A stretch of 64,000 bases of DNA, taken from the NCBI GenBank assembly GCA_965228855.1, contig CBDDIJ010000002.1, positions 832,001-896,000 on the forward strand, given 5' to 3'. The first letter of the stretch is position 1. Every line of letters starts with the position of its first letter. Below are positions 1,756 through 57,640 of the stretch, in pieces. Source of the stretch: Candidatus Obscuribacterales bacterium. GTDB taxonomy: Bacteria; Cyanobacteriota; Vampirovibrionia; Obscuribacterales; Obscuribacteraceae. The translations under genes were made by a program, and so were the position numbers. The notes under the pieces are model-generated. The model saw only the letters and a program-made list of their open reading frames with translations, made no database searches and was not told the DNA's origin.

Positions 1756-1907
1756 CTACTAGATGGATTGGTAGAAATTCAAGGGCGGGAAGGGAGTCGT
1801 AGTGATGCTTTTGGAGGAAGGCGTCCCTTAGTTCGGGCGTGAAAAAGCGAGTTTGGCTATCTGGCTATGACGGAATTCGAAAATTCCGGCGCTCTCTCGT
1901 AGCCAGA
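1756..1907. repeat. dispersed CTACTATA/palindrome element, partial copy (left terminus + palindrome)
   Basis: CTACTAGATG at 1756; palindrome TTTGGCTATCTGGCTATGACGGAATTCGAAAATTCCGGCGCTCTCTCGTAGCCAGA at 1852-1907; no right terminus found. Confidence 0.8.
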
Positions 1908-2291
1908 CGCCAGGCAGCTGAGTTGCGAAGTTATTTTTGAAACGGTTGTCGAGGCTTGGCTAGTCAAGTGTTGAGGCTCGTTCGGACTATGTCAGAGCTG
2001 TGCGAGGCTCTGCTGTTTTCTCAGTGACCCCAGACAGTCGGGATTAGCCGTCAAGCCAGCTGATGAGGCGTCTTATTTCTTTTAAAGAACGACAGTTTCG
2101 GAGAAGTAAAGAGAGAACCAAGATAAGAGCTCTTTGTAGCCTCATACAGACATACTTCTTCTTCCGTTTCGTAGATCTAGATCAACAGCCACAGTCAGAG
2201 CTCGCTCTCGTTTAACTCTCTACCACCAGGAGCCACTGGTGCGTCTCTCATCGCCCTGTCGCTGCGAGGCGCAGGTGAAAGGACGAGTACT

Positions 2292-2795
2292 ATGTCATCG
2301 GTACTAGTTTTGAACAGTTCTTCCGAGCCGTTGCACGTATGCGACTGGCGAAGAGCTGTCTCGCTGATTTGCAAAGGCAGAGCCCAGGTTGTAGAGCACA
2401 GCGACAGGCGCTTGCTGGCAGATGATTTCCCCTTACCGGTCGTCATCCGCCTGCATTCGCAGGTTTTTGTGCCTTACGCACCTCTCTCGGCCAGTCGCGG
2501 CAACATCCTCGCGCGCGACAAACACACCTGTCAGTATTGCGCCACCAAACGCGGCGAGATGACGCTCGACCACGTTGTTCCTCGCTCGCGTGGCGGTGGT
2601 TCAACCTGGGAGAATCTCGTTACCGCCTGCCAGAAGTGCAATGCACGCAAGGGAGACCGCAGCCTGAGCGAATCTGGCATGAAGTTGCTTTCCACGCCGG
2701 CGCGTCCTCGCGACCGGATGTCATTCCTGATCATGAAACACCGGTCGCAAAACCCGGCGTTCGAGAGCTGGTCGCGTTACCTCAAGGTTTCGTGA
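2292..2795 (+). CDS. HNH endonuclease (McrA-like)
   Basis: RDKHTCQYC...TLDHVVPRSRGGGSTWENLVTACQKCNARKG zinc-finger HNH motif. Confidence 0.93.
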   Translation: MSSVLVLNSSSEPLHVCDWRRAVSLICKGRAQVVEHSDRRLLADDFPLPVVIRLHSQVFVPYAPLSASRGNILARDKHTCQYCATKRGEMTLDHVVPRSRGGGSTWENLVTACQKCNARKGDRSLSESGMKLLSTPARPRDRMSFLIMKHRSQNPAFESWSRYLKVS

Positions 2796-2829
2796 TTCTC
2801 CTCGAAGAATAAACAGAAAGAGAAATCGC

Positions 2830-4437
2830 ATGAGCACAGAATCGAACCACGGAACGGCCAATCCGCTCCGCGAACTCTACGCCCCGCGTCAGCCGTTCAA
2901 CTCCGGCATGCTGCGCGTCTCCGAGCTCCACGAGATTTATTTCGAGGAAAGCGGCAATCCCAACGGAAAGCCGGTGGTCTTCGTCCATGGTGGTCCCGGT
3001 GGTGGCACTGACCCGAGTCAACGGGGCTTCTTCAACCCCGACATTTACCGCATCGTGCTATTCGACCAGCGCGGCTGCGGCAAGAGCCTGCCTTATGCGT
3101 CACTCGTCGACAACACGACCTGGGACCTGGTCGAGGATATGGAGAAGCTGCGCAAGCATCTCGGTATCGCTCGCTGGCAGGTCTTCGGCGGCTCGTGGGG
3201 CAGCACACTGGCGCTCGCGTATGCGGAAACGCATCCGGAGTTCGTCACCGAGCTCGTTCTGCGGGGCATCTTCCTGGTCCGCAAGCAGGAGATCGACTGG
3301 TTCTACCAGCGCGGCGCCAGCGCCATATACCCGGACGCCTGGGAGCATTATCTGAAGGCTATCCCGGCGTCGGAGCACGGCGACCTCGTCTCGGCTTATC
3401 ACAAGCGCCTGACGTCCGACGACCCGGCTGTGCGTCTCGCTGCTGCGAAGGCATGGAGCATCTGGGAAGGCAGCACCAGCAAGCTCTACACCGATCCGAA
3501 GTTCCTCTCACGCTACGCCGCCGACGATTTCGCCGTCGCGTTCGCCCGCATCGAATGCCACTACTTCGTCAACAAGGGCTTCATGCGCGAAGGTCAGCTG
3601 CTCGAAGACGTGCACAAGATCAGGCACATTCCGACCGTGATCGTCCAGGGACGCTATGACGTCGTCTGTCCGATCGAGTCGGCATGGGCGTTGCACCGCG
3701 CGTTCCCCGAAGCCCAGCTGGTGGTCGTCAACGACGCCGGTCACTCCGCCAAAGAGCCCGGCAATGCCTCGGCTTTGATCGAAGCGACCGACAGATTCGG
3801 TGCCAATTTCAATCCCGAGGCTGAAACCGTTGCCGCGGCGCCGGCAGTCGCCGGCACCGCTGGCGATACCACGCAGCGTTGTGTTTTCCTCGATCGCGAT
3901 GGCGTCATTAACGTCGGCATCAACGTCACGCAAGCGTCTGACTTCCAACTCATCCCAGGCTCAAAGGACGCGATTGCGAAACTGAAGCAAGCCGGCTTCA
4001 AAGTAGTGGTCGCGACCAACCAGGGCGGTCTTGGAGAAAACCTTGACGGGTCGATTCGCTGGAAGGCCCACCCACTTTCGCGCAAGGCGCTCGGCGAGAT
4101 TCACGCGCGCATGCTCGAGCTTCTCGGCGAGGAAGCCAAGCCGGATGCCATCAAGGTCTGTCCGCACTCCAAATCGGTGGACTGTCCGTGCCGCAAACCG
4201 GCTCCCGGTATGCTCACCGATGCCGCCGGAGAACTGAACATCGACCTGAAGCGTTCCTTCATGGTCGGCGACCGCGACACGGATGTGGCGACTGGTATCG
4301 CAGCTGGTGCGACCGGTATCCTGGTTCTCAGCGGACCCGACGGCGACAAGGCGAAGGACAAGGATCGGGTTCCCGACGGAACACCGGTCTTCCCGTCGCT
4401 CAAGGAAGCCGCCGACTGGATTCTGCTGCAGAACTAA
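2830..4437 (+). CDS. pip: prolyl aminopeptidase (S33) fused to a GmhB/HisB-type HAD phosphatase
   Basis: HGGPGGG, GGSWG nucleophile, GRYDVVCP, AGHS; after an Ala-rich linker FLDRDGVIN, ATNQ, CPH..CPCRKPAPGM, GDRDTD. Confidence 0.93.
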   Translation: MSTESNHGTANPLRELYAPRQPFNSGMLRVSELHEIYFEESGNPNGKPVVFVHGGPGGGTDPSQRGFFNPDIYRIVLFDQRGCGKSLPYASLVDNTTWDLVEDMEKLRKHLGIARWQVFGGSWGSTLALAYAETHPEFVTELVLRGIFLVRKQEIDWFYQRGASAIYPDAWEHYLKAIPASEHGDLVSAYHKRLTSDDPAVRLAAAKAWSIWEGSTSKLYTDPKFLSRYAADDFAVAFARIECHYFVNKGFMREGQLLEDVHKIRHIPTVIVQGRYDVVCPIESAWALHRAFPEAQLVVVNDAGHSAKEPGNASALIEATDRFGANFNPEAETVAAAPAVAGTAGDTTQRCVFLDRDGVINVGINVTQASDFQLIPGSKDAIAKLKQAGFKVVVATNQGGLGENLDGSIRWKAHPLSRKALGEIHARMLELLGEEAKPDAIKVCPHSKSVDCPCRKPAPGMLTDAAGELNIDLKRSFMVGDRDTDVATGIAAGATGILVLSGPDGDKAKDKDRVPDGTPVFPSLKEAADWILLQN

Positions 4438-4447
4438 GTTGGAAACG

Positions 4448-4484
4448 CTGGAGAAGTTGGCCCAAAGCCAACTTCTTCAGTTTT
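4448..4484 (+). terminator. intrinsic terminator
   Basis: CTGGAGAAGTTGGC-loop-GCCAACTTCTTCAG followed by TTTT, just after the pip stop. Confidence 0.7.
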
Positions 4485-4494
4485 CTGAAATTCG

Positions 4495-4717
4495 CTACTA
4501 TATAAGACAGGACAGGCAAAGCCTGCGATGGCCGACAACGTCAGGATCGCAGGCCCTGGAACGGCAAATCTCCTCTCGTTGTCTATCGCTCGATGACGAT
4601 TTTCAGTAAATCCGGCATCGAGCGATAGACAAAAGGGCCTGGCTCTGAACGGAAAACTTCAGACAGCGTCTCTGGTAGGCACTTTCGAGAATTTTCTTAT
4701 CTTATCCTGTATAGTAG
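4495..4717. repeat. dispersed CTACTATA/palindrome element, complete copy (223 bp)
   Basis: CTACTATA at 4495, TATAGTAG ending 4717 (imperfect 24-bp terminal IR); central palindrome 4579-4632 with perfect 17-bp stem TTGTCTATCGCTCGATG/CATCGAGCGATAGACAA. Confidence 0.88.
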
Positions 4718-4764
4718 TAAAATCGCTTGTCCTGTCGAGTCGATTAGCGAGGATCGGGGGCGGG

Positions 4765-5595
4765 TTAGCCGATTTCGATCAGTTCCGTTTCCGAATAAAA
4801 ATATTGTTTCGGGGAGATTGGATGCGGCGAGGATTTGAACATCTCTTGCACGAACGTTCTCATCTTAACGAGGTCTTCTTGCGAATCTTCGCCGCAAATT
4901 ACCAGGATGTCCCTTGCGGGCACCGAGATTATCGGGCTGCCCTTGACCATGTCGGTCATGTTTCTCATGAACTTTCGGTTCAGCAGTAGTCCCGATTCGA
5001 AATCGCGTCCTGAAGCCAGAACCCAGAGAGTCGGTCCGCCCTTTAGAGATATTTCGCCACCCAAAAGGTCTTTCAAGTTTTGAACGGCTTTCTCGCGCAA
5101 GTCGCTGTCATCGAGGGGAACGCTTGAGCGACCTTCCGGAGACAAATAGCCGACGGCGGCTCGCGAGTTTATACCATAAACCATTGAAAGGTCCGCACCA
5201 AGCGATTCTCGAACAAGTTTTTGCCCGATCTTCTCCTCTATCTGGTCAACTTCTTCAGTTCTTCGAATCAACGGGATCAAGTTGTTTTCTACGTCTTGCG
5301 AGGACAGGGAAGTTAGTTTGGTTGAATCGCGCATTGTTGTAATTTGCGGTTCGATGAACGCGAGTCGCTTGCCAGGCTGATCTTTGCAAGCTTTCCAAAC
5401 ATTTTCCAGGTTTAACTGCGCTGTAAGCGTTTCGCCGGACTGCGATGGGATTTGAGCCTCGATGCGGAGCGCGCTAACCACGTTCGCCAGTGCGCCCGCG
5501 ACTGATGACTGAATCAGGTTTGCGTAGATGTTCGTGAAAGTCTCATCGTCCAGATCGGACGATTCGAGCTTATCGAAATCAGGTTCCAGATTCAT
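4765..5595 (-). CDS. DUF1444/YtpQ-like protein
   Basis: C-terminal DFESGLLL...PIISVPARDILVICG...PHPISPK pattern resembles DUF1444. Confidence 0.65.
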   Translation of the reverse strand: MNLEPDFDKLESSDLDDETFTNIYANLIQSSVAGALANVVSALRIEAQIPSQSGETLTAQLNLENVWKACKDQPGKRLAFIEPQITTMRDSTKLTSLSSQDVENNLIPLIRRTEEVDQIEEKIGQKLVRESLGADLSMVYGINSRAAVGYLSPEGRSSVPLDDSDLREKAVQNLKDLLGGEISLKGGPTLWVLASGRDFESGLLLNRKFMRNMTDMVKGSPIISVPARDILVICGEDSQEDLVKMRTFVQEMFKSSPHPISPKQYFYSETELIEIG

Positions 5596-5614
5596 TTTCG
5601 TCCTCGATAGTGGC

Positions 5615-6949
5615 CTACGGTTGATAGAGTTGTTGATCTTCCGGAATATTCAACGCACGCCAGGTTCCGGTAATGACTGGAACTCCTGGTCCGTGAATGC
5701 GGTCGGCTTCTTGCGCTCTGCCTGTGCTTCTGAGCAAGTTTGCCAGACTGCGTCCTAAACCTTTTGTTTCCGGATGATCGGGTCCGAGCGTCTTTTGTCT
5801 GATGCTGAGCGCTTGTCTGTAAAGCGGTTCTGCATCTTTGAATCGAACCTGGATATGATATAGAGTTCCAAGGTTGTGCAGAGCAGTCGCATAATCCGGA
5901 TGCTCGGTCCCAAAGATTTTGGCGTAAATTTCCACGCATTTTTTTGTGAGCGGTTCTGCTTCATTGAAACGGTTGAGCTGGTAGTAGAGCCGAGCCAGAT
6001 TGTTCAGCGAACGAGCAACTACGATGTGTTGGGCGCCCAGGTGTTTGACTTTGATGTCGATAGCTCGCCTGTAAAATTGCTCCGCTGCGTCGTGACGCTC
6101 TTGCGCGCAAAGCGAATCTGCGAAGCTGTCCAATGCGTATGCCAGTCGCCTGGGATCTTCGTTGGCAAACGGTTCGAAATAGCGAACGGTCGCTGCCCAG
6201 ATCGCTTCGGCATCGGAGAGACGACGTTCATTGTCCGCTATCTCTGCCATTCTTCGTAGGTTTTCCCAGCGGGCAACGGCCAGCCCAAGCGGCTCACGAA
6301 CTGGTTTCACTGGTGGTGGCAGTGGAATTGGCGGCGAAACGTTCTCGCTCGTTCCGCGCTGTTCCCCGCGCCGTCCAGGAGGCGGTGGCGGTGGAGGAGG
6401 GGGAGGAGGAGGTGGTGGTGGCGGCGGAGGCGCAGGCTCCTCGGCTTTCGTCTTGGCCCAGTTCTTTGCGGTTATCAAAACTTCGCCGGATTTTAGTTTT
6501 TCAGCGTCTTCCACGCGCCCGCAAGCCCGAAGCAAATTTGAATAGTTGCCTAGCAGTTTCGCTATATCCGGATGATCCTTGCCGAGCCGGCGCGTTTTTA
6601 TGTCTAAAGCCTGCTGGTAGAACTCTTCGGCTTCCGGATATTTTTCTTGAACATGCAAAAGCATAGCCAGGTTGGTCGCTATCACTCCGACGTCGTACTG
6701 GTCTTCGCCGAAAATTTCGGAATAAATCGCATGAAGCTGCCGGCAACAGTTCGTCGCGTCTGCGAAGCGACCCAGGTGCCAGTAAACTTCGGAAAGTCCC
6801 TCGAGAGTGAGCGCCGTACGCCGGTCCGTGCGGTCAAAACGCTCAGCTTCTTTGAGTGCCTCCTTCCAGGCAAGCTCGGCGTCTTGCAGCCGTTTTTGTT
6901 GCTGTGCTTCTTCCGCCTTGGATCTTAATGCGTCCCAAATCTCAGACAC
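5615..6949 (-). CDS. TPR protein (kinesin-light-chain-type repeats) with central poly-proline linker
   Basis: Repeated SLNNLA..Y..Q..F.EAEPL...A..I....LG.DHP units in two blocks separated by a long poly-Pro run. Confidence 0.9.
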   Translation of the reverse strand: MSEIWDALRSKAEEAQQQKRLQDAELAWKEALKEAERFDRTDRRTALTLEGLSEVYWHLGRFADATNCCRQLHAIYSEIFGEDQYDVGVIATNLAMLLHVQEKYPEAEEFYQQALDIKTRRLGKDHPDIAKLLGNYSNLLRACGRVEDAEKLKSGEVLITAKNWAKTKAEEPAPPPPPPPPPPPPPPPPPPGRRGEQRGTSENVSPPIPLPPPVKPVREPLGLAVARWENLRRMAEIADNERRLSDAEAIWAATVRYFEPFANEDPRRLAYALDSFADSLCAQERHDAAEQFYRRAIDIKVKHLGAQHIVVARSLNNLARLYYQLNRFNEAEPLTKKCVEIYAKIFGTEHPDYATALHNLGTLYHIQVRFKDAEPLYRQALSIRQKTLGPDHPETKGLGRSLANLLRSTGRAQEADRIHGPGVPVITGTWRALNIPEDQQLYQP

Positions 6950-7092
6950 GTTTACGCCCCTTCAACTCTCTCAAGCACATTATGACAGGGGTTGCGTGTC
7001 GTTTGAAAAGGTTTCGCGTTTGAATTGGCGAAGTCAAGCGCCGTCGCCGCTCTGGGGTTGATATGATTCTGAAATCAATTGAGGTCTAGTAA

Positions 7093-7419
7093 ATGGCGAC
7101 AGAAACCGCAGTACCAGTCACAGCAGAAAACTTTCACAAGCTTCCGCGCGGCTCACAACTTCTCATTGCGTACGCATTGTTTAACGACATGTGGAACATC
7201 CAACTGTTGAGAACCGACCGCGACATACTCGCTCTGGTTAATTCCGGTTGGCTTGTGGCGAAGCCAAGTAGCGCGCACGGATTTGTCAACGGCCTCTTCG
7301 AAGACGCTACCTGGGCGGCCTTTGAAACGTTCGAAGATAAGATCCTTGGCAGCGTTACCGATGTTGAGATGGAGCGCTTTGTCGCTAGAAAAGGCAAAGA
7401 GTATCCCTGGCTTTGGTAA
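7093..7419 (+). CDS. hypothetical protein
   Basis: 108-aa ORF with GAGG RBS and plausible globular composition. Confidence 0.65.
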   Translation: MATETAVPVTAENFHKLPRGSQLLIAYALFNDMWNIQLLRTDRDILALVNSGWLVAKPSSAHGFVNGLFEDATWAAFETFEDKILGSVTDVEMERFVARKGKEYPWLW

Positions 7420-7835
7420 ACTTCTGGAGCGAAACCAATTGCGCTCACCGGTCTGTGGTATCGCTGGTGGTGCGCCATTGTCAGGTGGAAAGGCGATATT
7501 TGTTTTCACTTGAAACAGTTAATTTAAATTCGACTGCTTTTCCGATATATTGTTGAGATACACGACATTGATTTTGAAGTGGAGTTTGGTTCGAATGACG
7601 CCCATCAGTAGCGCCGACAAAGTATGGTTCCTCCTCGGACTCGTTTTCCTGGTCTGGGTTTTGGCTGCCAGCGCGCACCACTTCGCCCAATAGGCGATCT
7701 TTCAAGTTTAGATTTCCAAGCCGCTTGATTGGCGGCTTTTCGTTTGGATTGAAGATACTATATGATGTCACTGGTTTTGGTTGAAAACGAAATCACCCAG
7801 CCGGGGCGGGGTGATTCCGTCTCTCCTCAGACGGG

Positions 7836-8048
7836 CTACTGCTGTTTCGTAATTGGAATGGCCTGAGACGCGGCGATTAAGCCGGCCATGGGCACGTTCA
7901 ATATCAACAAAACCGGATAGAGTTCACGAACCGCAGTCCAGCCGATTGTCAGCGTTATGAAGAAACCGATTAGAAGTAACATCACGACGTAGGCGGGCAG
8001 GAAATAAAACGCGAACCAGTGAGTCAGTGCGCTCAGCGCTTTGAGCAT
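7836..8048 (-). CDS. small two-TM membrane protein
   Basis: AGGAGGAG RBS before ATG 8048; MLKALSALTHWFAFYFLPAYVVMLLLIGFF hydrophobic. Confidence 0.65.
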   Translation of the reverse strand: MLKALSALTHWFAFYFLPAYVVMLLLIGFFITLTIGWTAVRELYPVLLILNVPMAGLIAASQAIPITKQQ

Positions 8049-8174
8049 GGTCTCCTCCTGTTGAGACAGAAGCGGTGCCGACGCGCGCCGGCACCGCTCT
8101 GTGGTCAAAGTGGGCTTGTGGGGTGGATTAAACAGTCACGCCTTAAGAAGCAAAACCGTCCGGCGCTGCAGTGG

Positions 8175-8387
8175 TTAACCGGCGGGCAAGCTGGAAATCT
8201 TGAGCGGTTCCGGTTGCACCATGATTCCGCGCTTGAGCGGCGAATCGGTGTTCAGGCTGTCGCCATGCGAGTCCGTTGGAGCGGGCGTCGGCATGGTTGC
8301 CGTCTTGTGTTTCGGTTTGGCGGCATGGTAAGCGCCGATCACGGCGAAGGCGAACAGGGCGCAGGCGAGCCATCGCGACATACTCAT
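8175..8387 (-). CDS. small exported or membrane-anchored protein
   Basis: 70 aa, N-terminal hydrophobic segment, AAGGA RBS. Confidence 0.5.
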   Translation of the reverse strand: MSMSRWLACALFAFAVIGAYHAAKPKHKTATMPTPAPTDSHGDSLNTDSPLKRGIMVQPEPLKISSLPAG

Positions 8388-12521: not shown

Positions 12522-12579
12522 AAAGTCACCCCCGGTAAGCATGTTTGCGGGACGGGCAACTTCGCCGATGGTTCCCTTG

Positions 12580-12870
12580 AGCAAAAAAACCACTACTAGA
12601 CCAGACAGCAAAAAAAAACTACTACTAGACTAGATAGTCTTTATTGAATGCCGTCAAATGAGACGCGGCAAGGCATTTCGGCTTTGCTTCACTAGCAGTT
12701 TCACAAAGACAACTCGTTTTGGCTATCCTGGTATGACGCATTTGGCTAAATCCGGCATTCCAGGATAGACAAAGAGACTTTTGTCTCGACTACAACGGGA
12801 CGTTAAGGACTGAAACGCCCTATCTCCACAGCGTTGCGCGGTTTTGACTGAGCATGACGGCATATAGTAG
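12580..12870. repeat. dispersed CTACTATA/palindrome element, complete copy (12622-12870) with tandemly duplicated left end
   Basis: CTACTAGA at 12622 (duplicated ~28-bp unit 12580-12635); palindrome 12718-12773; GGCATATAGTAG ending 12870. Confidence 0.85.
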
Positions 12871-12936
12871 AAAAACACGAAAGCGCACAATCCCGGGGGG
12901 TGAGTCCGGAATTGTGGCTTCCGCCTAGCGGCAGTA

Positions 12937-16328: not shown

Positions 16329-16530
16329 CTACTGTATGATTCCGTTTCTTCCGGCGCTCTCTGTGTCAAAACCCCATCTACTATATGATCCCGTTTCTTC
16401 GGGCGCTCTCAAAGTTCGGTGCATTCGGGCTTCGTGGCATTTTAAGCGTTGTTCTCCACTCGAAAGATGGTTACTTGGCTACGCCAGAGCGACGCTTTTT
16501 GCCAAATGCGTCATGCCAGCGTAGACAAAA
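16329..16530. repeat. dispersed CTACTATA/palindrome element, partial copy with duplicated left end
   Basis: 49-bp-period direct repeat CTACTRTATGATYCCGTTTCTTC.GGCGCTCTC at 16329 and 16378; palindrome 16475-16530 ending GCGTAGACAAAA; right terminus not found. Confidence 0.82.
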
Positions 16531-16537
16531 ATTGATG

Positions 16538-26399: not shown

Positions 26400-26556
26400 C
26401 TACTATATGCCGGCGTTGAACATTGTTGGAGGCGGTGTCTCGAAAGGCATGCTGTTACTGCGTCATGCCGATGCGGGTGAGACAGGCGGCAGATTTGCAG
26501 TGTCTTTTGGCAACGAGAGAGCGACGGATTTCGCGAATTCCGTCATAGTGGCGTAG
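26400..26556. repeat. left part of a CTACTATA/palindrome element interrupted by IS110
   Basis: CTACTATATG at 26400; palindrome 26507-26556 cut after ...GGCGTAG; continues as ACAAA at 27813. Confidence 0.9.
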
Positions 26557-26569
26557 ATAGTGTGTTAGG

Positions 26570-26575
26570 TGTCAA
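26570..26575 (-). promoter_or_regulatory. -35 box of the IS circle-junction promoter
   Basis: TTGACA overlapping the transposase stop; 17 bp from TACGTT (27808-27803) once the ends join through the CT core. Confidence 0.8.
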
Positions 26576-27534
26576 GCCAGAGTGCTGTTAAACCTGGAAT
26601 CGAATGGTTGTTTCGAGCGATATACAGCGACCATCATACGGAGAAGTTTGCGTGAGGCGGCACAAACAATTACTTTTCTGTTTTTTCCCTTTGCTGCCAG
26701 TCGTTTAGCGAATTCAGCCACTGGCGGATTAAACCGAGTGGCGGTAAGGGCGGCCATGTACAACATGCTGCGGATCACTGGATTTCCCATCTTCGAAATT
26801 CTGGAACGTCCTCGGACTGAAGAACCGGACTCACGGATCATGGGATTCAGACCACAGAATGCTTCGATCTGGCGCAAGCTCGTAAACGAGTCCATCATCG
26901 ACAGTTCTGAGAGAAACGTGAATGCTGTTCTCCAGCCGACGCCCTTAATCGTCTGGAGTAATTTAGCGTTGCTTTTCAAAGCAGGATTCTCGGAGACCAG
27001 CGTCTTCGCCAGCTTTTCCAGTGTTTGAATTTCGTTGGTAATGAACTTCAACATACGCATCTGAGAGTCTAAAGCGCGCTGGTCCAGGCGTCCCGATTTC
27101 ATTCGATTTGTGACTTGGGTTTTGGTTTTCTTTAGCGCAGCGAGCTCTCTACAAATGTCTCTCAGGGAGCGAATGTCAGGATCCATCGGAGACCAAGGAA
27201 GGGGCTCCATTTTAAAACAAAAGTCGGCGATGATTTCCGCATCGATTGCGTCGGTTTTTGAACGTCTAAATTGGCTCTTGCCGAAGGCGTGTATCAGCGC
27301 TGGATTTACCACGCTGACTCGATAGCCAAGTTTGTGTAGAAACTCCGCAAGGGGCTCCCAGAGCTTCCCCGTAGCTTCCATGCAAAAGTGAACATCCTTA
27401 CCGGATGCTTGAATCCATTTGACTATTCTCTTGAACCCAGCTGGGTTATTGCTGACGTGCAGCTTCGAATTCTTCCTGTCCTGGCGATGGCAGTCTAACG
27501 TCTCCTTCGATACGTCGATTCCAACAAAGATCAT
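26572..27534 (-). CDS. IS110 DEDD recombinase/transposase
   Basis: GIDVSK, CMEATG, KTDAIDA (DEDD) and GLNPMIRESGSSVRGRSRISKMGN (catalytic Ser loop); AGGAG RBS. Confidence 0.97.
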   Translation of the reverse strand: MIFVGIDVSKETLDCHRQDRKNSKLHVSNNPAGFKRIVKWIQASGKDVHFCMEATGKLWEPLAEFLHKLGYRVSVVNPALIHAFGKSQFRRSKTDAIDAEIIADFCFKMEPLPWSPMDPDIRSLRDICRELAALKKTKTQVTNRMKSGRLDQRALDSQMRMLKFITNEIQTLEKLAKTLVSENPALKSNAKLLQTIKGVGWRTAFTFLSELSMMDSFTSLRQIEAFCGLNPMIRESGSSVRGRSRISKMGNPVIRSMLYMAALTATRFNPPVAEFAKRLAAKGKNRKVIVCAASRKLLRMMVAVYRSKQPFDSRFNSTLA

Positions 27535-27577
27535 TGCTCCTACCTCCTGTTGCTGGTTCGCTTGGACGCGGATAGAA

Positions 27578-27796
27578 TCTTGTCAGGGCGAGCCTTGTTT
27601 ACACGTGCTAAATCGGTCAGGATTTGCTGTAGATAGTGTTCAGCCTTAGAGGACAAGACAGGAGCGGAAGTCCGAAATCTACGCCTCTGACTTTCTAGCC
27701 GGAGACAAAATACTGGTTTCTTCCGCTCCTCTATCCTCGCGTCCTCGGATAGCCTTGCCGACTGCACGCTCCTGGTCAACAGCAACGTACCAGTCA
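27578..27796 (-). ncRNA. IS110 bridge RNA (ends approximate)
   Basis: 5' hairpin 27731-27752; target loop closed by 11-bp stem 27660-27670/27720-27730 with guides ATTTTGTCT and GGCGTAGA; donor loop closed by TCTTGTC/GACAAGA with guides ACACTATCT and ACAAG. Confidence 0.9.
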
Positions 27797-27802
27797 ACAT
27801 CT

Positions 27803-27808
27803 AACGTA
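27803..27808 (-). promoter_or_regulatory. -10 box of the IS circle-junction promoter
   Basis: TACGTT two bases inside the left end. Confidence 0.7.
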
Positions 27809-27812
27809 CAAG

Positions 27813-27900
27813 ACAAATATGAGGACCGTTTCGCGGTCGAAGTGCAAATCCCCGAGCCATGTGGCTTTGGGCATCTCGAAGGTGTGGAGTTTTATAGTAG
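27813..27900. repeat. right part of the interrupted CTACTATA/palindrome element
   Basis: Begins ACAAA and ends TATAGTAG at 27900; reconstituted length 245 bp, matching other copies. Confidence 0.88.
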
Positions 27901-30707: not shown

Positions 30708-30934
30708 CTACTATATGAAGTAGGTCTCTCTCTTCGTTCGAATGTCCCGACCTGGAATGGTTTAGGGCAAAACCTTTGCGAGCGACTATCTCGACTGCCT
30801 ATCCAGGAACGACGGAATCTCGGAAAACCGTCACTCCTGGATAGACACGATGCTCCTCATTCTGAAATTAAATCCCGGAAGTCACGCGCAGGCGGGTACT
30901 GCAGAAGTTTGGTAAATCCTGTCGAATATAGTAG
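30708..30934. repeat. dispersed CTACTATA/palindrome element, complete copy (227 bp)
   Basis: CTACTATATG at 30708; palindrome 30796-30847; ATATAGTAG ending 30934. Confidence 0.88.
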
Positions 30935-32432: not shown

Positions 32433-32689
32433 CTACTATACTTCCAGATCCTATCTACTATACGCCCAAGTATTATCTGACTCTCTCCAACGTTCTCGCG
32501 ATGGGGGGTTCCGAGGTTTGGCAGTAGAAAGTTGCTGTTAAAACTGCTTGATGGCTACGAGAGAGCGACGGAATTCGCGAGATCCGTCAACGAGCCGTAG
32601 ACAAACGCGGTGAGCGAGAGCGTTTGTGGAGCGTAAGTGCAGGGCGGATGCCTGTTTCGAGGCGTGTCGGGTGCGGATCTTTATAGTAG
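32433..32689. repeat. dispersed CTACTATA/palindrome element, complete copy (32455-32689) with duplicated left terminus
   Basis: CTACTATAC at 32433 and 32455; palindrome 32552-32605; TATAGTAG ending 32689. Confidence 0.86.
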
Positions 32690-37381: not shown

Positions 37382-37529
37382 TGTCTATCCAGGAATGACG
37401 GATTTGCGAAATTTCGGCGCTGTGGGATAGACAAATGAGCCTGGGAAGACCATGTTTCTCATTTTAAGCTATGAAGAACCAGTCCGGTAGGGAGTCTTCG
37501 TCCTCAACAGAGACTAACGGATATAGTAG
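37382..37529. repeat. dispersed CTACTATA/palindrome element, partial copy (palindrome + right terminus)
   Basis: Palindrome 37382-37435, preceded by two extra CTATCCA-containing ~20-bp units; ATATAGTAG ending 37529. Confidence 0.82.
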
Positions 37530-45868: not shown

Positions 45869-46282
45869 GGTTTCGTTCTCGCACGCGGCAGTGGTGTAGC
45901 CGCAACGTTCAAAAGGAGACTCTTCTCGAGAACCTGCGCAATAACAGTTCGCTGTAAACGAACGCGATCGCTCGGCTAGTGCGGGAGTAGGAAGAGAAGT
46001 CGATCGTGTTTCGAGAGCGACCGTCGGGAAGGGCTGTAGCTTTTCCCGGCGGTTTTCTCCTTTCAGCTTCTTCGTCTAGTTTCTCCTTCTTCTTCTCTTT
46101 CGCTCATGAAACGCATCTACTATAAGATAGCGGAGAGATGCTCAAAGGCGAAAGCACGACTGATGTGTCGTGCTTTCTGACCTCAGGTCAAGACAATCTC
46201 GCGACTGCGGAACGTTCCACTAGTCACCGGATACGGTGGCAGTAATCGGTGGACTCGCGGACGCGTTCGAGCGTGGCGCGCT

Positions 46283-49471: not shown

Positions 49472-49575
49472 AATTTTTCAAATCTCTCTTACAGTTTATG
49501 ACGCTCGTGTGCCAGTGGCAAGCGAGCAGCGATACGGTTCAAGCCGGTCGAGGGAAGCCGGCTTGACCTGTGAAG

Positions 49576-50498: not shown

Positions 50499-52898
50499 AT
50501 GAACATCCTTAATCCATTCGAGTCTAGCGACCGCTCATCGAACAATTCGCACGGTTTTCTGCAAAGCCCGATCGACTGGATCGGCGAGATGAAAGCCGAC
50601 TCCACAGCAAAGCAGTCGGGTGGCATGAAGCTACCGCTGATAGGCGAGCTTTCGGTGCCGCCTTTGCCAGGTTTTGGCTCAGAGTTTCCGGGGCTGTTTG
50701 GTTCATCGGTATCTGAGAAAACTGGCTCTGACAGCGGAATTCCAGGTAGCGGTAAGCTGCCGTTGCCGGGTTTAGACACGGAACTGCCGCAGTTGCCTAT
50801 TCCGGGGCAGCCGAGGCTGCCAGTCCCCGAACTGCCGAAGCTGCCTGTGCCTGAACTGCCGCGGCTGCCCGTTCCCGGCGTGAATATGGAACTGCCGCAG
50901 CCGCCTGTACCCGGTATGAAAAACGATTCTATGGGGCTTCCCTTTCCGGATCTGGCTGGACTGGGTGACCGTGCGATGATGCCCGGAGTGGATCTTGGTT
51001 TGCCGAATTTAAATAGCCTTATAAATGATACCGCTGGCAGTGGTATTCCGGATCTGCCGGGGCTGCAGCTGTTCGATGGGATGTCGACCGCAGGTGGCTT
51101 GCGAAGCGGCTTCGGCAGAAGCGTTTCTACTGGTGATAACCTGCGATCGAACTACAGCGAAAATGATATTTGGTCGCCTCAGGGAAATAGCTGGTCAGTG
51201 GGTGACGACACCCGCTGGTCTGACTACAACGAAGGTGATGTTTGGGCTCCGACTGAGGCTCCGTGGTCACTTGGCGATCAGAATGTCTGGTCTGACTACG
51301 AGCCGTTTTCAGGGCGGACTAACTTGGGAGGCAATGATAGCGCCGGTCGGTTTCCCAAACCTGATTCAGGGCTGAGAACTGTTGGCGATGCGGGTCTTAA
51401 TAGGTCCGCCATGACCGGTGATTCGACTCGAGGTATGGCGGCGGATGCAGTTGGTTCGATCGGTGACGCTGATCTTCGCCAGGTTTTGAAGGCGATTGAG
51501 CCGTTGCTCAGATCGCTTGAGCAGATGTTTGCAATGATCGCGCAACAGTTTGCGGCGCTGAACAATGGTGCTGCAGGTGGTGGCGCAGGCGAAGGTTCAA
51601 ATTCCGGCAGAAGTAGTCGCGGAAGCGCAAGGGGCAACAATTCCGACCGATGGACGGGCGGAAACACCTGGGGCGACTCTGCAGGCGCAGGTAGCGACAA
51701 CCGTGACGGATGGCAGTATAACGCTCCGGCAAGAGAGCATCATTGTGATAACACGAGCCGCCACCGTAATTCGGACGGAAGTGCCGTTCAGCCCGGTAAA
51801 GATGGTTCCAATGATCAAACAAATTCAGCAAGCAAAGATAACGAGCCTCGGGAGACGTCCAAAGATGACATTGAACAACGACGTAGAGACTTTGAAACAG
51901 AATACAATGACAGGAAATCAGGCACCACATCTGGTGGCGGAGCGGGTGATGGAGGAACGGCTAAACCCGGAAGTGACAAACCGAAATCTCCAGAGCCGGA
52001 CAATGATTCGAAAGACTCTAGCGGCATTAAGGACAGCGGCAAGGATGCGAATAGCCCTAACAAGCGCTATGCCGACACCGGAATCGAAAGAGGGCGTACT
52101 CTCTTCAGAGACGACTTCAACGGAAAGTTAGGAGAGGAGCCGAATCGCGAGGTATTCGATACAGAGCACATCGGTGCCGATGGAAAGACGCGGCAGCGAG
52201 GAGACAGTATTCGGGAGAAGGGGATCATCAGTGAGAATAATACTGTTATGGATGGAAACGGACATTTGCAGCTGTTTGCAAAGAAAGAACAGACCTGGGA
52301 TCCGGTAGCGAAGGAGTACGTGCCGTACACGAAGGGCAGCTATCATACGTCAGACGGAATGAACTTCAAGTTGGATGACCATCCGGACGGCGTCGTGATT
52401 GAAGTGAGAGCGAAGCATCCGACGGCTCCTGGCGCTAAGTTCAATGCGCTGTGGATCATGACCAGAGATTGGACTGCCAAGCAGGGCGAGAAGCCCGGTT
52501 CGACCGTCGAATACGATGCCGCCGAGGGTGGTGGCGCCGACATTGCCATTCACTGGCCGTACAAAGACGCGAATGGTGAGACCAAGGTCAAGCACCCGGG
52601 CGGTTTTCACCCGAAGGATGTGGATTTCGAGGACGGTCAGTTCCACACGTACACAGTCGCGATAACCAAGAATCCTGAGACGGGGCGCGGAGATGTGACC
52701 GAATACATCGACGGCAAGAAGGAGTATTCGGCGAAGAGCATTTTCCCGAGTGACAAAGCGCTTCATATCAAGGCGAGCATGGAAGTGTCGCCAAAGTGGA
52801 CCGGTAAGACGCTCACCAGTGAGGGCGGCATGAACTCCGACGCTGCCGGAATTATCGACTATGTGGATGTGTCCGAGCTGAAGAAGAAGGGCGCTTGA
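50499..52898 (+). CDS. low-complexity protein with C-terminal GH16-like glycoside hydrolase domain
   Basis: LPVPELP repeats; LFRDDFNG, ALWIM, VEYDAAEG (ExDxxE), FHTYTV, EYIDG; start uncertain. Confidence 0.75.
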   Translation: MNILNPFESSDRSSNNSHGFLQSPIDWIGEMKADSTAKQSGGMKLPLIGELSVPPLPGFGSEFPGLFGSSVSEKTGSDSGIPGSGKLPLPGLDTELPQLPIPGQPRLPVPELPKLPVPELPRLPVPGVNMELPQPPVPGMKNDSMGLPFPDLAGLGDRAMMPGVDLGLPNLNSLINDTAGSGIPDLPGLQLFDGMSTAGGLRSGFGRSVSTGDNLRSNYSENDIWSPQGNSWSVGDDTRWSDYNEGDVWAPTEAPWSLGDQNVWSDYEPFSGRTNLGGNDSAGRFPKPDSGLRTVGDAGLNRSAMTGDSTRGMAADAVGSIGDADLRQVLKAIEPLLRSLEQMFAMIAQQFAALNNGAAGGGAGEGSNSGRSSRGSARGNNSDRWTGGNTWGDSAGAGSDNRDGWQYNAPAREHHCDNTSRHRNSDGSAVQPGKDGSNDQTNSASKDNEPRETSKDDIEQRRRDFETEYNDRKSGTTSGGGAGDGGTAKPGSDKPKSPEPDNDSKDSSGIKDSGKDANSPNKRYADTGIERGRTLFRDDFNGKLGEEPNREVFDTEHIGADGKTRQRGDSIREKGIISENNTVMDGNGHLQLFAKKEQTWDPVAKEYVPYTKGSYHTSDGMNFKLDDHPDGVVIEVRAKHPTAPGAKFNALWIMTRDWTAKQGEKPGSTVEYDAAEGGGADIAIHWPYKDANGETKVKHPGGFHPKDVDFEDGQFHTYTVAITKNPETGRGDVTEYIDGKKEYSAKSIFPSDKALHIKASMEVSPKWTGKTLTSEGGMNSDAAGIIDYVDVSELKKKGA

Positions 52899-52912
52899 TA
52901 GCGATTCTGATG

Positions 52913-53051
52913 TTGTCTATCAGTGAATGCCGGATTTCGTGGATTTCGTCATTCGCTGGTAGACAAGTCCTTTGGTTTGGAGGAGGTGTGAGCTGAGAGG
53001 GCTTGTTGGGCGGTCGATGCCGGATTTTGTTAATACTGAATGAAATAGTAG
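52913..53051. repeat. dispersed CTACTATA/palindrome element, partial copy (palindrome + right terminus)
   Basis: Palindrome TTGTCTATCAGTGAATG...CATTCGCTGGTAGACAA at 52913-52966; AATAGTAG ending 53051. Confidence 0.82.
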
Positions 53052-53158
53052 GCAGGGTCTGGAAATGACAGGAGGAAGGGCACGTTTGTTACGCGCGCCC
53101 TTCCTCTGCCACAAGCGGTTTGGTTGTCGAATGCCGCTCACATTGCGGACGAACAGCC

Positions 53159-53896
53159 TTAGTTGTCCTCGTCGGACTGTTCGTTGTCGCACGGCGGGCA
53201 GTCCGTCGGGATGTAGCACACGTCGGAAACCGGCTGAATCAGCCGCGCGATACCGCCGAGCACGACACCACCGATGAAGCCACCGATGTGCGCCCAGTAA
53301 GCCACGCCCGCGCCGGTGAGGTCACCGCCGGACTGGATGATGGGCAGGAACTGCATGATGAACCAGGCGAGCAGGAACCAGTAGGCCCGGATGCGCACGA
53401 CGAACATCGGGAGCACGAAGCCCGTGATGTCCGCCTTCGGCCACATCAGCAGATAGCCGCCGAGGACGCCCGCGATGGCACCGGAGGCGCCAAGCATCGG
53501 GACGGAAGTGGTCGGGTCCGAGGCGATCTGCGCAGCTGCGGCAGCGAGTCCGCCGAGCAGGTAGAAGCCGAGGAACTTCAGGCGACCGAGGCGCGCCTCG
53601 ACAGCCTTACCGAACGTGAACAGGAAGATCATGTTGCCGGCAAGGTGCATGAGGCCGCCGTGCAGGAACATGTGGCTGAAGATCGCGACCACAGCCCACT
53701 TGATCTGGTAGGGATCGCCGGAGCCGAAGGCGTTGAGGATCGTGGACGGAACGAGCATCCACTTCAGCATGGAATCGCCGGCACCGCCGCTCAGCTGGAT
53801 GGTCTCCCAGATGAAAGCCGCGCAGTTCGCCGCGATGAGAAGCACCGTCACCAGGGGGAAGGTGAGGCAACGCAGGTTGTCTTTGAGGGGAAACAT
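53159..53896 (-). CDS. rhomboid-family intramembrane serine protease
   Basis: HMFLHGGLMHLAGNM, GASGAIAGV, AYWAHIGGF. Confidence 0.95.
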   Translation of the reverse strand: MFPLKDNLRCLTFPLVTVLLIAANCAAFIWETIQLSGGAGDSMLKWMLVPSTILNAFGSGDPYQIKWAVVAIFSHMFLHGGLMHLAGNMIFLFTFGKAVEARLGRLKFLGFYLLGGLAAAAAQIASDPTTSVPMLGASGAIAGVLGGYLLMWPKADITGFVLPMFVVRIRAYWFLLAWFIMQFLPIIQSGGDLTGAGVAYWAHIGGFIGGVVLGGIARLIQPVSDVCYIPTDCPPCDNEQSDEDN

Positions 53897-54693
53897 TTGT
53901 TTCTACTCCAATTTTGTCCGCGACTCTTTCTGAGTGCGGTTTTGGTGGCACACAGGGATGCTGTGTGTGAAAGAAAGCAGCAGTCAGTCAGTTCGTCCGC
54001 TGCTTGGTTGCGTTTCAGGGCAACCGAAGTTTGGATGTCCGACCAAACCCAGCTCTGTCTACCTGTGAGCGATAAAACTCATTCCGGTTTGAACCAGAGG
54101 GTGGAGAGAGAGGAGTGGAGGAGACTTCTGACGGGTTTCGGAATTTAAGTCTTTGGAGAAAAGAGAATTGGACATTTAACACTACGGAGTAGCGGGTGAA
54201 GAAAACAATCAGATTCTTTCGAGGATATATTCAGAGCATCTCTGGTAGAGAGCGCGGAACGTCTGATTTAGAGCCCCTTTCAAGCGAGGGGTTTAGACCG
54301 AGAGGCTTGAACTGTGCGTGGATGTCAAGTTGACTTGAGATATTGCACAGTTGTGTTATGTTGACAAGCCACCCCTGTGGGGCTTTTGGGTGTTGAAGTC
54401 AAGCGGTTTGTAAGCTTCGCTATTGCCGAACATCCGATGTGCTCGTATTAACTTGACTAGAGGTTCTCAGGAATTGAGATATCGCTAGCTCGACTGTTAG
54501 GTTTTGGAGTCGTTAACTTCCAAACTTTATCCAGTATCTCCAACCCCTAACTCCGTCCAACTGCTCTTGCCTATCAGCTTTTCTTTTACGCCTGCTTCCA
54601 AGGCGTAAGTCAATCGCGTCTGGCCGCTTTCACGAAAGTCGTGACCAGGCGCGCTAGCTGTCTCGTTTCAAACGAAACGACGGAGAAACGTAA

Positions 54694-56382
54694 ATGAATA
54701 AACGCATGCAGAAAGAGCTTGCACGCACGGGTAAGCCGGTGTACAGGCTGCATTTCCTTGGTTCCGCCGGTGGTGTCACCGGGTCCCTCATGCTCGTGGA
54801 GATGTTCTCCCGGGAAGGAGCGAAGCGTTTCTTGCTCGATGTCGGTTTGCACGTGGACCAGCAGAGTCTCGATTTCCAAAACCGCTTGCCCAAGGGCATG
54901 ACCGGCAAGGACATCGACTTTGTGGTCATCAGTCACGCGCACCTCGACCACTCTGGCTACCTCCCGAAACTCATCAAGGAAGGCTTCACCGGTCCTGCGT
55001 ACTGCACGCCGGCGACTTTCGACCTGATGGAAATCTTGCTGCCCGACTCCGGCTTCTTGCAGGAGGAGGCGGTCAAACGGTTTAACAACCGGCTCACCCG
55101 TCGCGCCGAAGCCGGCAACCAGTCTGCTTCACAGAACACTGCTGCCGGCAAGGGCGGTAAGGTTCACGGTGGCGCCGATGGTGGCAAGCAGAAGGGCAAG
55201 CGTGGTGTGAAGGCCGTCGCCGTGAACGCGAATGCCTCCGCTGTCGCTGACGCCCCTCGGCTCCGCCAGCCCCTCTATACCGAAGAGGAAGCCCGCGCTA
55301 GTCTGAAGTGCGTCAAGACGATCGACTACAACGTCCGCACGAAGCTCGCCGAAGACATCTTCGTCACCTTCACGGATGCCGGTCACATCCTCGGCTCCGC
55401 CGTTGTCACCATGGACCTGGGTAGCGGCGCCAACAAGCGTTCGCTCTGTTTCACAGGCAACATCGGACGCGACAACCCGCCCGTGCTGCAGACCTTGGCG
55501 CAGATCAAGGGCGCCGATTACGTGATCACGGAGTCGACGTACGGTAATCGCGTGCACAAGGTGCGCGACCGCCACGCTCGCCTCGCCGAGATCATCAACA
55601 AGGGCTACGAGCGCGCCAAGCAGGGCAAGAGGGACGGCGCCGGCGTCATCCTGATTCCCGCCTTTGCCGTCGGGCGTGCGCAGATCGTTCTCGACGACCT
55701 GCGTCAGCTCATGGACAAGAAGATGATTCCGAACCTCAAGACTTATCTTGATGGGCGGATGAGCATCAAGGCGACCGACGTGCACCGCAAGCACGCCAAC
55801 CTGCTCAACGCTGAAACTCAGGCAGTGATCAACGCCGGCGGCGACCCGTTCGCTACCCCGCGCTTCGAGCTCTGCCGCGAGTGGACCGACTCTGCGCGCC
55901 TGCAGGAGCCGCAGTCCGAGCCGATTATCGTGGTCGGTTCGAGCGGCATGGCCAATGGCGGTCGTATCGTCAGCCATCTGTCCAAGCGTCTCTCTGGTCC
56001 GGAAAACACTGTCGTGTTTGTCGGCTATCAGGGCACGGGAACGCTCGGCAATGCGCTCGTGCGTTTCGCAGACGGCAATCCGTTCACCGAGCGCAACACG
56101 ACCGCTCACCTGGCTAACGCCAACGCTGCGCCGAAGACTGCGAATGTCGCCGGCAAGTCCATCAAGGTTCGCGCCACGGTGGAATTCATGTCGGACTATT
56201 CCGGTCACGCGGACGGTGTCGACATCTGCAGGTGGCTCGGCAAGTTCAAGCAGAAGCCGAAGAACACCTTTGTCGTCCACGGTGATGATGATGCTCTCGC
56301 CGGCATGCGCGATCAGATCGTGTCGCGCCTGCACTGGGACGTCACCATTCCCAAGGCTCGTGAGGTGTTCGAGCTGAGCTAG
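54694..56382 (+). CDS. MBL-fold beta-CASP ribonuclease
   Basis: SHAHLDHSG, AGHILGSA, ESTYG, PAFAVGR, SGMANGGR, YSGHAD, VHGD. Confidence 0.95.
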   Translation: MNKRMQKELARTGKPVYRLHFLGSAGGVTGSLMLVEMFSREGAKRFLLDVGLHVDQQSLDFQNRLPKGMTGKDIDFVVISHAHLDHSGYLPKLIKEGFTGPAYCTPATFDLMEILLPDSGFLQEEAVKRFNNRLTRRAEAGNQSASQNTAAGKGGKVHGGADGGKQKGKRGVKAVAVNANASAVADAPRLRQPLYTEEEARASLKCVKTIDYNVRTKLAEDIFVTFTDAGHILGSAVVTMDLGSGANKRSLCFTGNIGRDNPPVLQTLAQIKGADYVITESTYGNRVHKVRDRHARLAEIINKGYERAKQGKRDGAGVILIPAFAVGRAQIVLDDLRQLMDKKMIPNLKTYLDGRMSIKATDVHRKHANLLNAETQAVINAGGDPFATPRFELCREWTDSARLQEPQSEPIIVVGSSGMANGGRIVSHLSKRLSGPENTVVFVGYQGTGTLGNALVRFADGNPFTERNTTAHLANANAAPKTANVAGKSIKVRATVEFMSDYSGHADGVDICRWLGKFKQKPKNTFVVHGDDDALAGMRDQIVSRLHWDVTIPKAREVFELS

Positions 56383-56491
56383 GCTCGACGCTGAAACCAA
56401 GTCGGGGTTCGAGTCGCAAGCTCGAATCCCGACGATGGTCTTTCCTCAAGATCGGACTTGGGGTTCGATAACTAATAGACCGGAGGAGGTT

Positions 56492-57037
56492 ATGGTTTGG
56501 ACATTCGCTCAGCCGCAGCGCTTCATAGATGAGCGCAAGGTTGTGCACACAATAAAGAGCGTCGCTCAGAAGCGGCTCGCGGAGCTTGATTCGGCGAAGC
56601 GTTTCATCGAGCCGGTTGAAACCGTTCTCGACGAACTCGCGCAACTTGCTCCAGCGGCTGATCTTGTGAAGGTCGATTGCAATCACGCTGCGGCGGATGT
56701 GCGCGCGGCTGTTTTTCAAGACTCGGCCATTGAGCTGCTTCAGGCGAAGTGCCGGAACCGTTACTGGCTCTGGTATCTTCTGTCGCGACTTGAAACTGCA
56801 ACGTTTCCTGTCGACGCGCTGGCTGTCGCCCGGGCGCACGCTCGTGCCAAGCAGTCACTGTACGACAATCGATTCGGCTTTGGCTTTGTCGCTCCTATCA
56901 GTCTCATCTGGGAGCTGAAAGGGATGCCGCCCGGCTTCGTCCTTGAACTGTGGGAATCGGGACGCATACTCGCGAACCCGAGGCACGATTCGAACGGCTA
57001 CCCGCTCATTCTGAACCCGCTACTGATCGACGATTAA
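56492..57037 (+). CDS. hypothetical protein
   Basis: GGAGGAGG RBS before ATG 56492. Confidence 0.7.
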   Translation: MVWTFAQPQRFIDERKVVHTIKSVAQKRLAELDSAKRFIEPVETVLDELAQLAPAADLVKVDCNHAAADVRAAVFQDSAIELLQAKCRNRYWLWYLLSRLETATFPVDALAVARAHARAKQSLYDNRFGFGFVAPISLIWELKGMPPGFVLELWESGRILANPRHDSNGYPLILNPLLIDD

Positions 57038-57044
57038 CCTGTCC

Positions 57045-57087
57045 GAAGCTGGCTGCTCACCCCGCGTGACAGCCAGCTTCTTTTCTT
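57045..57087 (+). terminator. intrinsic terminator
   Basis: GAAGCTGGCTG...CAGCCAGCTTC followed by TTTTCTT. Confidence 0.85.
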
Positions 57088-57640
57088 GATTTTGACTACT
57101 ATATGCGGGCGTATCCGCTGAAAACTGCGGGCATTGTGCAGGCGGGGTATTGGGGTCTTGGGGTCAGTTCAGTGTGCCTCAAATTTAGCTCGTTGGCGGC
57201 GCTTGATTTTGACTACTATATGCGGACGTATCCGCTAAAACCTGCGAGCATTGTGCAGGCGGGGCATTGGGGTCTTTGTATCAATTCAGTGTGCCTCAAA
57301 TTTAGCTCGTTGGCGGCGTGGTGTAGACGGAATTTCGAAATTCCGGCGCTCTGTGATAGACAAAGCCACTTTTCTTGGGGGTGCCAATTCGGACGAAAGT
57401 CTCTAAAGGTCCGCCTCGTACTGCTCTCGCGTTTTGACTGAGCACGTCGGCATATAGTAGTAGTTTTGGCGGCGTGGCGTAGACGGATTTTCGAAATTCC
57501 GGCGCTCTGTGATAGACAAGGACACTCTTTTCGAGGGCTCTAATTCGGGCGAAAGTCTAGAAAGCTCCGTCTCGTCGTGCTCTCGCGTTTTGATTGAGCA
57601 CGTCGGCATATAGTAGGAAGGAGGCGTCGGCATATAGTAG
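57085..57640. repeat. expanded CTACTATA/palindrome locus: core copy 57213-57460 with duplicated left arm, duplicated palindrome+right arm and extra terminus
   Basis: 117-bp direct repeat (57085/57202), 156-bp direct repeat (57310/57466), CGTCGGCATATAGTAG ending at 57460, 57616 and 57640. Confidence 0.92.

Follow-up and report, generated by a model that had tools for sequence, protein, structure and literature searches.

The 64,000-nucleotide stretch of DNA analysed here (the window) comes from a Candidatus Obscuribacterales bacterium (GenBank assembly GCA_965228855.1, contig CBDDIJ010000002.1, positions 832,001 to 896,000) and carries many copies of an intergenic palindromic repeat, for which we describe the architecture, the distribution, and a candidate partner gene. 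An earlier reading of the window (the original prediction) had placed eleven imperfect palindromes in it, and all eleven are where it put them. As it also claimed, none lies inside a called gene; genome-wide, one of 211 copies does, in a weak open reading frame. Below, G000 is the genome under study, G007 is a relative with 94 per cent identity, and other G numbers are further Obscuribacterales genomes.

The basic unit is a core, an arm, and an 18-bp box, and it is often one-armed. The core spans 52 bp and consists of two 17-bp dyads (GKC-N11-GMC) whose centres are 34 bp apart, with an AT-rich middle. The octamers noted earlier on either side are the end of the box, TACK-N6-TATAGTAG, which is itself a 17-bp dyad and reads outward. 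Five window cores have a box on each side and a sixth does once an IS110 insertion is removed, matching the six octamer-flanked copies first described.

Two-armed elements lie at 4495..4717 (boxes from 4495 and to 4717, core 4580-4631, box distances from the core centre 111 and 112 bp), 12622..12870 (boxes from 12622 and to 12870, core 12720-12771, 124 and 125 bp), 30708..30934 (core 30796-30847, 114 and 113 bp), and 32433..32689 (core 32552-32603, 123 and 112 bp). G007 has two tandem cores at the second of these. In the last, the left box is doubled (32433, 32455) and the right unit has a paralogous array of four tandem copies at another genomic site. Another two-armed element, at 26400..27900, is split: its left box starts at 26400, its core (26508-26559) is broken at the right end, and its right box ends at 27900. 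The interruption is an IS110 element on the minus strand (26555..27810, transposase gene 26572-27534), which lies in the core's outer quarter; the repeat is intact in G007 and in sequencing run X6 (a 1256-bp skip), which is probably a DNA run. Hi-C run X21 gave no coverage of the elements. One-armed units occupy 1756..1905 (left box, an octamer variant, from 1756, then the arm and core 1854-1905; 124 bp), 16378..16527 (box from 16378, core 16476-16527; 124 bp), 37382..37529 (core 37382-37433, right box to 37529; 122 bp), and 52914..53051 (core 52914-52965, right box, an octamer variant, to 53051; 112 bp). The first is paralogous to two other genome copies. A tandem array with a 156-bp unit fills 57096..57640: a partial left duplicate (box 57096) is followed by a box at 57213, core 57311-57362, a box to 57460, core 57467-57518, a box to 57616, and a duplicated box to 57640. 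G007 has three cores in this array. The similarity reported between 12837-12870 and 57428-57460 is genuine, with two differences over the last 30 bp. Elsewhere in the window, a lone box-like site at 46117-46134 has no core close by. In G005 and G006, the orthologous gap lacks the DUF1444 gene that adjoins the 4495 element in the window (4765-5595).

Architecture and genomic distribution

A genome scan had been proposed with the original prediction. With our weight matrix for the core, the genome gave the 211 copies and its reversed sequence gave zero; scores leave a gap from 9.5 to 23, and there is hardly any tail of decayed copies. The 189 type-A cores comprise 64 two-armed, 115 one-armed, and ten armless copies, and the twenty-two subtype-B cores are nearly all without arms, in 73-bp arrays. 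The fixed spacing claimed for the octamers exists, but as steps rather than a range: boxes end 101, 112, 124, or 135 bp from the core centre, a period of 11.5 bp (R 0.81, 241 arms), and for 187 of 292 exact octamers a core lies 95-140 bp inward of the octamer's end. That is, cores sit a whole number of DNA turns from the box. This phasing argues for double-stranded DNA. The arms keep their length and have weak phased A/T tracts; they are mostly unrelated in sequence, with 206 families among the 241.

The claim of a symmetric 225-250-bp element with octamer termini, its midpoint coinciding with that of the palindrome, did not survive. Forty-five of the 64 two-armed elements have arms of unequal length class, and most type-A cores have one arm only. 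Dispersed paralogues (70-87 per cent identity) usually share a stretch that begins at the far core edge and closes with one box, tandem units run from the outer core edge to 5-8 bp beyond the box, and relatives have lone boxes without a core. We rejected a symmetric element bounded by terminal repeats on the one-armed majority, the unequal arms, and the homology spanning core edge to single box. Nor does the repeat have the terminal inverted repeats that would bound the mobile unit of a miniature inverted-repeat transposable element. A protein-coding or RNA reading was also rejected: Rfam gave no match within the window, and the arms are unstructured, folding no better than shuffled sequences (z -0.24, thirty elements). 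Type-A half-cores often begin with CGTC-AT and close on a CCA/ACA tail. Complementarity of the internal pairs that follow CGTC does not exceed chance, with no 8-9-bp stem pairing copy by copy, and GTAG occurs as the end of the box without a following stem.

Most cores (175/211) fall within about 1.06 Mb of contig C2 that holds dnaA and the GC-skew minimum, a domain lopsided about dnaA (about -725/+330 kb). The predicted density of about one copy per 6 kb holds inside this origin domain only; the remaining ~7 Mb contain 36 copies. Core loci are biased to convergent gaps (66/158 vs 72/395) and depleted between divergent genes (14/158 vs 116/395), counts that rest on our own gene caller. The origin domain (C2, ~67-1130 kb) has a GC content at third codon positions (GC3) of 0.62-0.77, compared with 0.55 elsewhere, lower synonymous divergence, and only three tRNA genes. 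The cores were rejected as a cause of the high GC3, as congeners without cores show the same values, and so was a recombination hotspot at cores, with no rise of synonymous divergence nearby. Separately, an array of twenty-one tRNA genes lies at C3 724-728 kb. Contigs C1, C4, and C6 and the first ~63 kb of C2 look contaminant- or chimera-like by eye in GC3 and gene content.

Conservation in place and copying

We compared 39 orthologous cores within 360 kb between G000 and G007. Near-invariant core positions differ at 10/624 (1.6 per cent) and octamers at 8/424 (1.9 per cent), compared with 12.4 per cent at four-fold sites. Change in cores and octamers is so far below four-fold sites that each copy must be constrained where it sits. 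Variable core positions differ at 68/1404, and arms diverge by 13.6 per cent with 0.4 per cent gaps. Two symmetric spots beside the box evolve faster than neutral (40/106 at -21/-20 and 31/104 at +1/+2, vs 13.6 per cent). In a third lineage, represented by two metagenome assemblies, cores are mostly at the same loci with the same length classes, and several arms are swapped or strongly diverged. Indel breakpoints between G000 and G007 mostly coincide with elements, as judged by eye.

The central dinucleotide is self-complementary in 129/211 cores, and central pairs match at 0.60 vs 0.40 expected. Half-site exchange at this dinucleotide is suggestive, yet indistinguishable from chance sharing and palindrome correction, and we set it aside. 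A minicircle intermediate was likewise dropped: runs X2 and X4 do contain a 32689-to-32552 joint, but a paralogous tandem array at another place in the genome accounts for it. No core was found in viral contigs. All seven genome copies of IS110 are inserted at GAC quarter-sites of cores, in two groups with different quarter-sites of the same core (outer, three copies; inner, four), and four further cores beyond the 211 are interrupted by IS110. IS110 parasitises the repeat and does not belong to it.

The box in other Obscuribacterales

The type-A core was found in three of forty-one genomes, in the third through one short, probably foreign contig. In the named collection, the records matched by the exact pattern are labelled Obscuribacterales, save one labelled Acidobacteria. 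In part, this record is 93.6 per cent identical to G000 and collinear with it, and it has probably been mis-binned.

The box is older than the core, because it stands alone in congeners and clusters round dnaA in three other genera. These clusters comprise 13/13 boxes within 1 Mb of dnaA on a 6.7-Mb contig in G065, 21/22 within -460/+700 kb in G012, and 12/12 within +110/+360 kb in G016. In G067, which has ParB hits, boxes are scattered. We picked forty congener box loci by motif, not position (~20/34 from G002, 15/40 from G001, 4/21 from G004, and 1/31 from G005). Twenty-one could be mapped to G000; 17/21 fall inside the origin domain, which holds 13.5 per cent of genes, and ten are beside a present core. 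A looser box pattern showed no overall excess in five congeners (21-40 vs control 27-35), and a stricter one showed an excess in some (G001 12 vs 2, G002 13 vs 4) and none in most other genera. Congener lone boxes lie near terminator-like hairpins. At five loci in G001 and G004 (L190, L201, L202, L203, and L205), lone boxes are followed 15-20 bp downstream by a different repeated end, a hint that the box is also a target of other mobile elements.

ParB_N was matched in six of 104 family genomes, and its G000 match is on the contaminant-looking C4 only. G000 has one two-mismatch match to the parS motif; a parS/ParB system is not supported. ScpB occurs in 8/8 congeners: SMC is present and its usual loader mostly absent.

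The layout recurs, built on other core sequences, in two other genera. In G083 the core is a double dyad of 49 bp, unrelated in sequence and present in twenty-three copies. Of the 104 family genomes, no other matches this core more than once, and ten others have a single match at chance level. In 272 kb selected for core or box matches, the same box accompanies 20/22 G083 cores, and 21/22 distances are 94-96, 105-107, or 118-119 bp (period 11.45). G041 has a third core, with five copies within 0.55 Mb, one of them adjoining the candidate partner gene described below. The other four have a box at 87, 90, 97, and 99 bp, and their common arm ends 13-25 bp before it, as expected if the box is a target. 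In this young family the box thus seems to be a target at first, carried along only later.

A candidate partner gene

The original prediction had proposed a search for a Y1/RAYT, IS91-like, or DDE transposase. No such enzyme was found as a partner, and the genome has no match to a Y1, Y2, resolvase, or large serine recombinase enzyme. Our candidate partner is instead a ~260-aa protein with phospholipase D (PLD, HKD), CxxC, and XRE helix-turn-helix (HTH) parts. G000 has five copies of the PLD-HTH gene, all in the origin domain, and matches occur in 56/104 family genomes, some by the PLD domain alone. On either side of the copy at C2:103074-103847 lie a type-A core, an arm directed outward, and a box, in both G000 and G007. 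A 54 per cent identical paralogue in G007 has subtype-B arrays on either side. Three more double-dyad repeat types in G000 (C2 66.6-67.1 kb, 1002 kb, and 1043-1044 kb plus dispersed copies) number fifteen, eight (weak), and forty-three copies, with none in controls; the last forms 102-bp arrays. Each adjoins its own PLD-HTH paralogue and has no phased box. Across G000 and G007, five PLD-HTH paralogues each have their own core type. In G083 one core lies 111 bp from a PLD-HTH gene, so that three lineages, with a core sequence particular to each, have a core next to this gene. Cores near PLD-HTH genes are often downstream of the stop codon, unlike autoregulatory operators. With a loose palindrome test, 24/36 PLD-HTH loci were marked, a count that has no matched control.

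The protein family comprises 270 clusters at E<=1e-30. Among the best 150 homologues, HxK(x4)D is kept in 147 and GSxN in 135, and the recognition-helix region is distinct in all 103 that match the XRE pattern. The partner's PLD match is below the Pfam cut-off (E 2e-5), and the protein has the superfamily's HxK(x4)D and GSxN motifs and fold. A structure model (predicted local distance difference test score 84.5) has NucT, Zucchini, and Nuc among its closest solved folds. The whole protein has no full-length match in Pfam, NCBIfam, PADLOC, or PDB sequences, no relative was confirmed among viral contigs or plasmids, and beside the G000 copies we saw neither a methyltransferase nor a helicase as partner.

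Other candidates fared less well. Two retron-type reverse transcriptases (C2:944459-945628 and C3:2800508-2801395) were rejected as partners since they occur in congeners without cores; the second kind is matched in 8/8 genus genomes, and the first is shortened in G007. Two Xer-like paralogues (L008:7776-8714 and L009:8283-9056; C2:369775 and 923282) were rejected as partners of the core on the same grounds, though they may be linked to the lone box. Their first catalytic Arg is replaced by Lys and HxxR by QxxR, with the Tyr kept. These substitutions are found in all homologues aligned over those motifs (60-92 per cent identity), and matches occur in 47/104 family genomes.

Discussion

The repeat system is real, well beyond chance, and apparently undescribed. 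The literature searched, which left out most subscription papers and supplements, held nothing relevant on the element or its pairing with an enzyme, nor did we find in it a PLD-family enzyme described as a repeat mobiliser. The repeat appears to be a lineage-specific core, with a candidate partner gene, joined to an older, family-wide box of the origin domain. The original prediction offered an undescribed non-autonomous element or a chromosome-organising site as alternatives. Both are supported, but they appear to be layers of one thing.

The closest functional parallel is with repetitive extragenic palindromes (REP), their paired form (REPIN), and the associated RAYT transposases. In 'REPtrons', a gene is flanked by its own repeat type in sequence-specific pairs, according to the accessible text of two sources (PMC8266576; bioRxiv 10.1101/2021.07.10.451892). 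As far as that text goes, the likeness extends to hundreds of extragenic palindromes, convergent-gap bias, tandem arrays, IS110 targeting, and slow copying with a likely host benefit. The Obscuribacterales repeat works like REPIN-RAYT but is not a member. G000, which is 95 per cent complete, has no PF01797 match, and its repeat flanks a PLD-HTH gene. Neither GTAG nor CGTC stands at the foot of a paired stem. By the same partly accessible accounts, RAYTs are HUH/Y1 enzymes found once per genome, whereas the candidate here has a PLD fold with an XRE HTH and several paralogues per genome. The core here is also a double dyad in helical phase with a second site, a sign of double-stranded recognition, and a host box confines the repeats to the origin domain. 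CGTC-tagged REP dimers, for which the accessible part of PMC3733652 reports no dedicated transposase, share the CGTC-AT start and CCA/ACA tail of the type-A half-core. They differ in that our cores have no 8-9-bp stem paired copy by copy, and those of G083 and G041 are untagged. The phased box is absent from that description as far as it is accessible.

Other known systems fit less closely. G000 has no PF00239 or PF07508 match, as a serine integrase att or resolvase res site would require, and no PF04986 (Y2) match for IS91-like rolling-circle transposition. For a tyrosine-recombinase site (Xer/dif or attC), presence of the recombinase should track the core, and it does not. The partner resembles the PLD-superfamily nucleases BfiI, Nuc, NucT, and Zucchini and the PLD domain of Mokosh in its motifs and fold; unlike them, it is fused to CxxC and XRE-HTH parts and flanked by its own repeat. 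E. coli bacterial interspersed mosaic elements (BIMEs) are composite intergenic sites, and parS, matS, and ram are sites confined to one chromosome domain. Our repeat resembles the former in composition and the latter in confinement, but has no ParB and is built of two layers, an old box and a replaceable core.

Our preferred reading, to which we assign a probability of about 0.55, is that each PLD-HTH protein binds its core and places copies of it beside host boxes, and that the host now keeps these copies. The core would be a double binding site for two HTH dimers, one per dyad. The PLD domains could then pair into one common active site by analogy with BfiI, which is described in the accessible portions of its literature as a dimer with one active site and a covalent intermediate resolvable by transesterification (PMC2853115, PMC2475615). 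Bending of the A/T-phased arm may let this active site reach the box, where nicking, a BfiI-like covalent enzyme-DNA intermediate, and strand transfer might follow. Such nicking could produce the fast-changing spots beside the box, the tandem duplications, and the rare dispersed copies. Cores would in this way be copied to a whole helical-turn distance from a host box, the marker of the origin domain, and the host appears to retain copies after insertion. For the host, the likeliest benefit is that the box serves origin organisation or termination.

Several results weigh against this interpretation. The partner is identified by position, and its binding, cutting, and mobility are predictions from sequence. 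Orthologous comparisons among G000, G007, and the metagenome lineage gave swaps, tandem changes, and replacements, and no clean pair of filled and empty sites, or target duplication, of the kind proposed as a check at the outset. Most arms are unrelated, so copying must be old or rare, and where distant copies share half-sites, this may be coincidence given the small sequence space. A phased box is mostly missing from core types B, C, D, and E. The twenty-two subtype-B cores persist in G000, where their paired paralogue was not found, and many PLD-HTH genes have no detected core, including congener copies and the second copy in G083. A stricter, sequence-independent double-dyad test marked 8/34 PLD-HTH loci vs 2/47 controls (p=0.015), although it missed several visible cores. 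Finally, the model fold also matches TrmBL2, a non-nuclease chromatin protein.

This last match would suit a PLD-HTH protein that is a regulator or chromatin protein, with the core as an operator pair, the box as a promoter (a -10-like TATAGT) or host-factor site contacted through a phased loop, and spread by duplication and gene conversion. Strong conservation in place is consistent with such a role. Among -10-like hexamers, TATAGT is mildly enriched upstream of genes (43 vs 30.6), boxes face gene ends on 152/210 armed sides, and a terminator-like hairpin lies near 48/229 boxes, at 10-19 bp in 32/48. We nevertheless consider this reading rather improbable: there is no -35 element 17 bp from the box, cores are depleted between divergent genes, and they flank the partner gene on both sides. 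Against it, too, the HKD motif is kept in nearly every homologue, each homologue has its own recognition helix, and different cores are coupled independently to the same box in three genera.

Alternatively, the box could substitute for parS in SMC loading or segregation, the core and arm being a host-evolved DNA-wrapping extension and the nuclease gene incidental. The scarcity of ParB beside universal ScpB in congeners, the boxes round dnaA in three genera and their scatter in G067, and the mapping of congener boxes into the G000 domain favour organisation. Patchy, lineage-differing cores do not fit an essential centromere, the domain is lopsided, and each core type adjoins its own PLD-HTH gene, making this unlikely for the unit as a whole; for the box, it can hold alongside copying by PLD-HTH proteins. 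We think it very unlikely that another enzyme moves the unit, be it a resident IS110 recombinase, the Xer-like pair, or a serine integrase, since lost, with the 52-bp core as its site. The placement of every IS110 copy in a core, the self-complementary and matching central dinucleotides, and an Xer-like pair inside the domain with its tyrosine kept are in its favour. Yet IS110 disrupts cores, the Xer-like genes occur in 7/7 congeners of which six have no core in their own contigs, no serine recombinase is matched, and the tracking of core types with PLD-HTH paralogues is left unexplained.

A bolder form of the PLD-HTH interpretation is that these repeats are a new class of site-specific mobile DNA. 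Variants of a PLD-fold phosphodiesterase-HTH protein, each with its own double-operator core, would home by a phased loop onto a host box that is a ParB-free, centromere-like mark of the Obscuribacterales origin domain, with ~190 insertions domesticated in the present lineage as chromosome-organising sites. We offer this tentatively, as possible but on balance doubtful. If true, it would mean new chemistry for DNA rearrangement, and the natural variants, at least 270, would be a ready-made protein-DNA code, each with its target given by the cores that flank it. A repeat family seen at three stages (5, 23+, and ~190 copies) makes the rise and host maintenance of REP-like repeats directly testable. 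Mobility aside, the box is a testable candidate for origin marking in a family that has SMC and almost no ParB.

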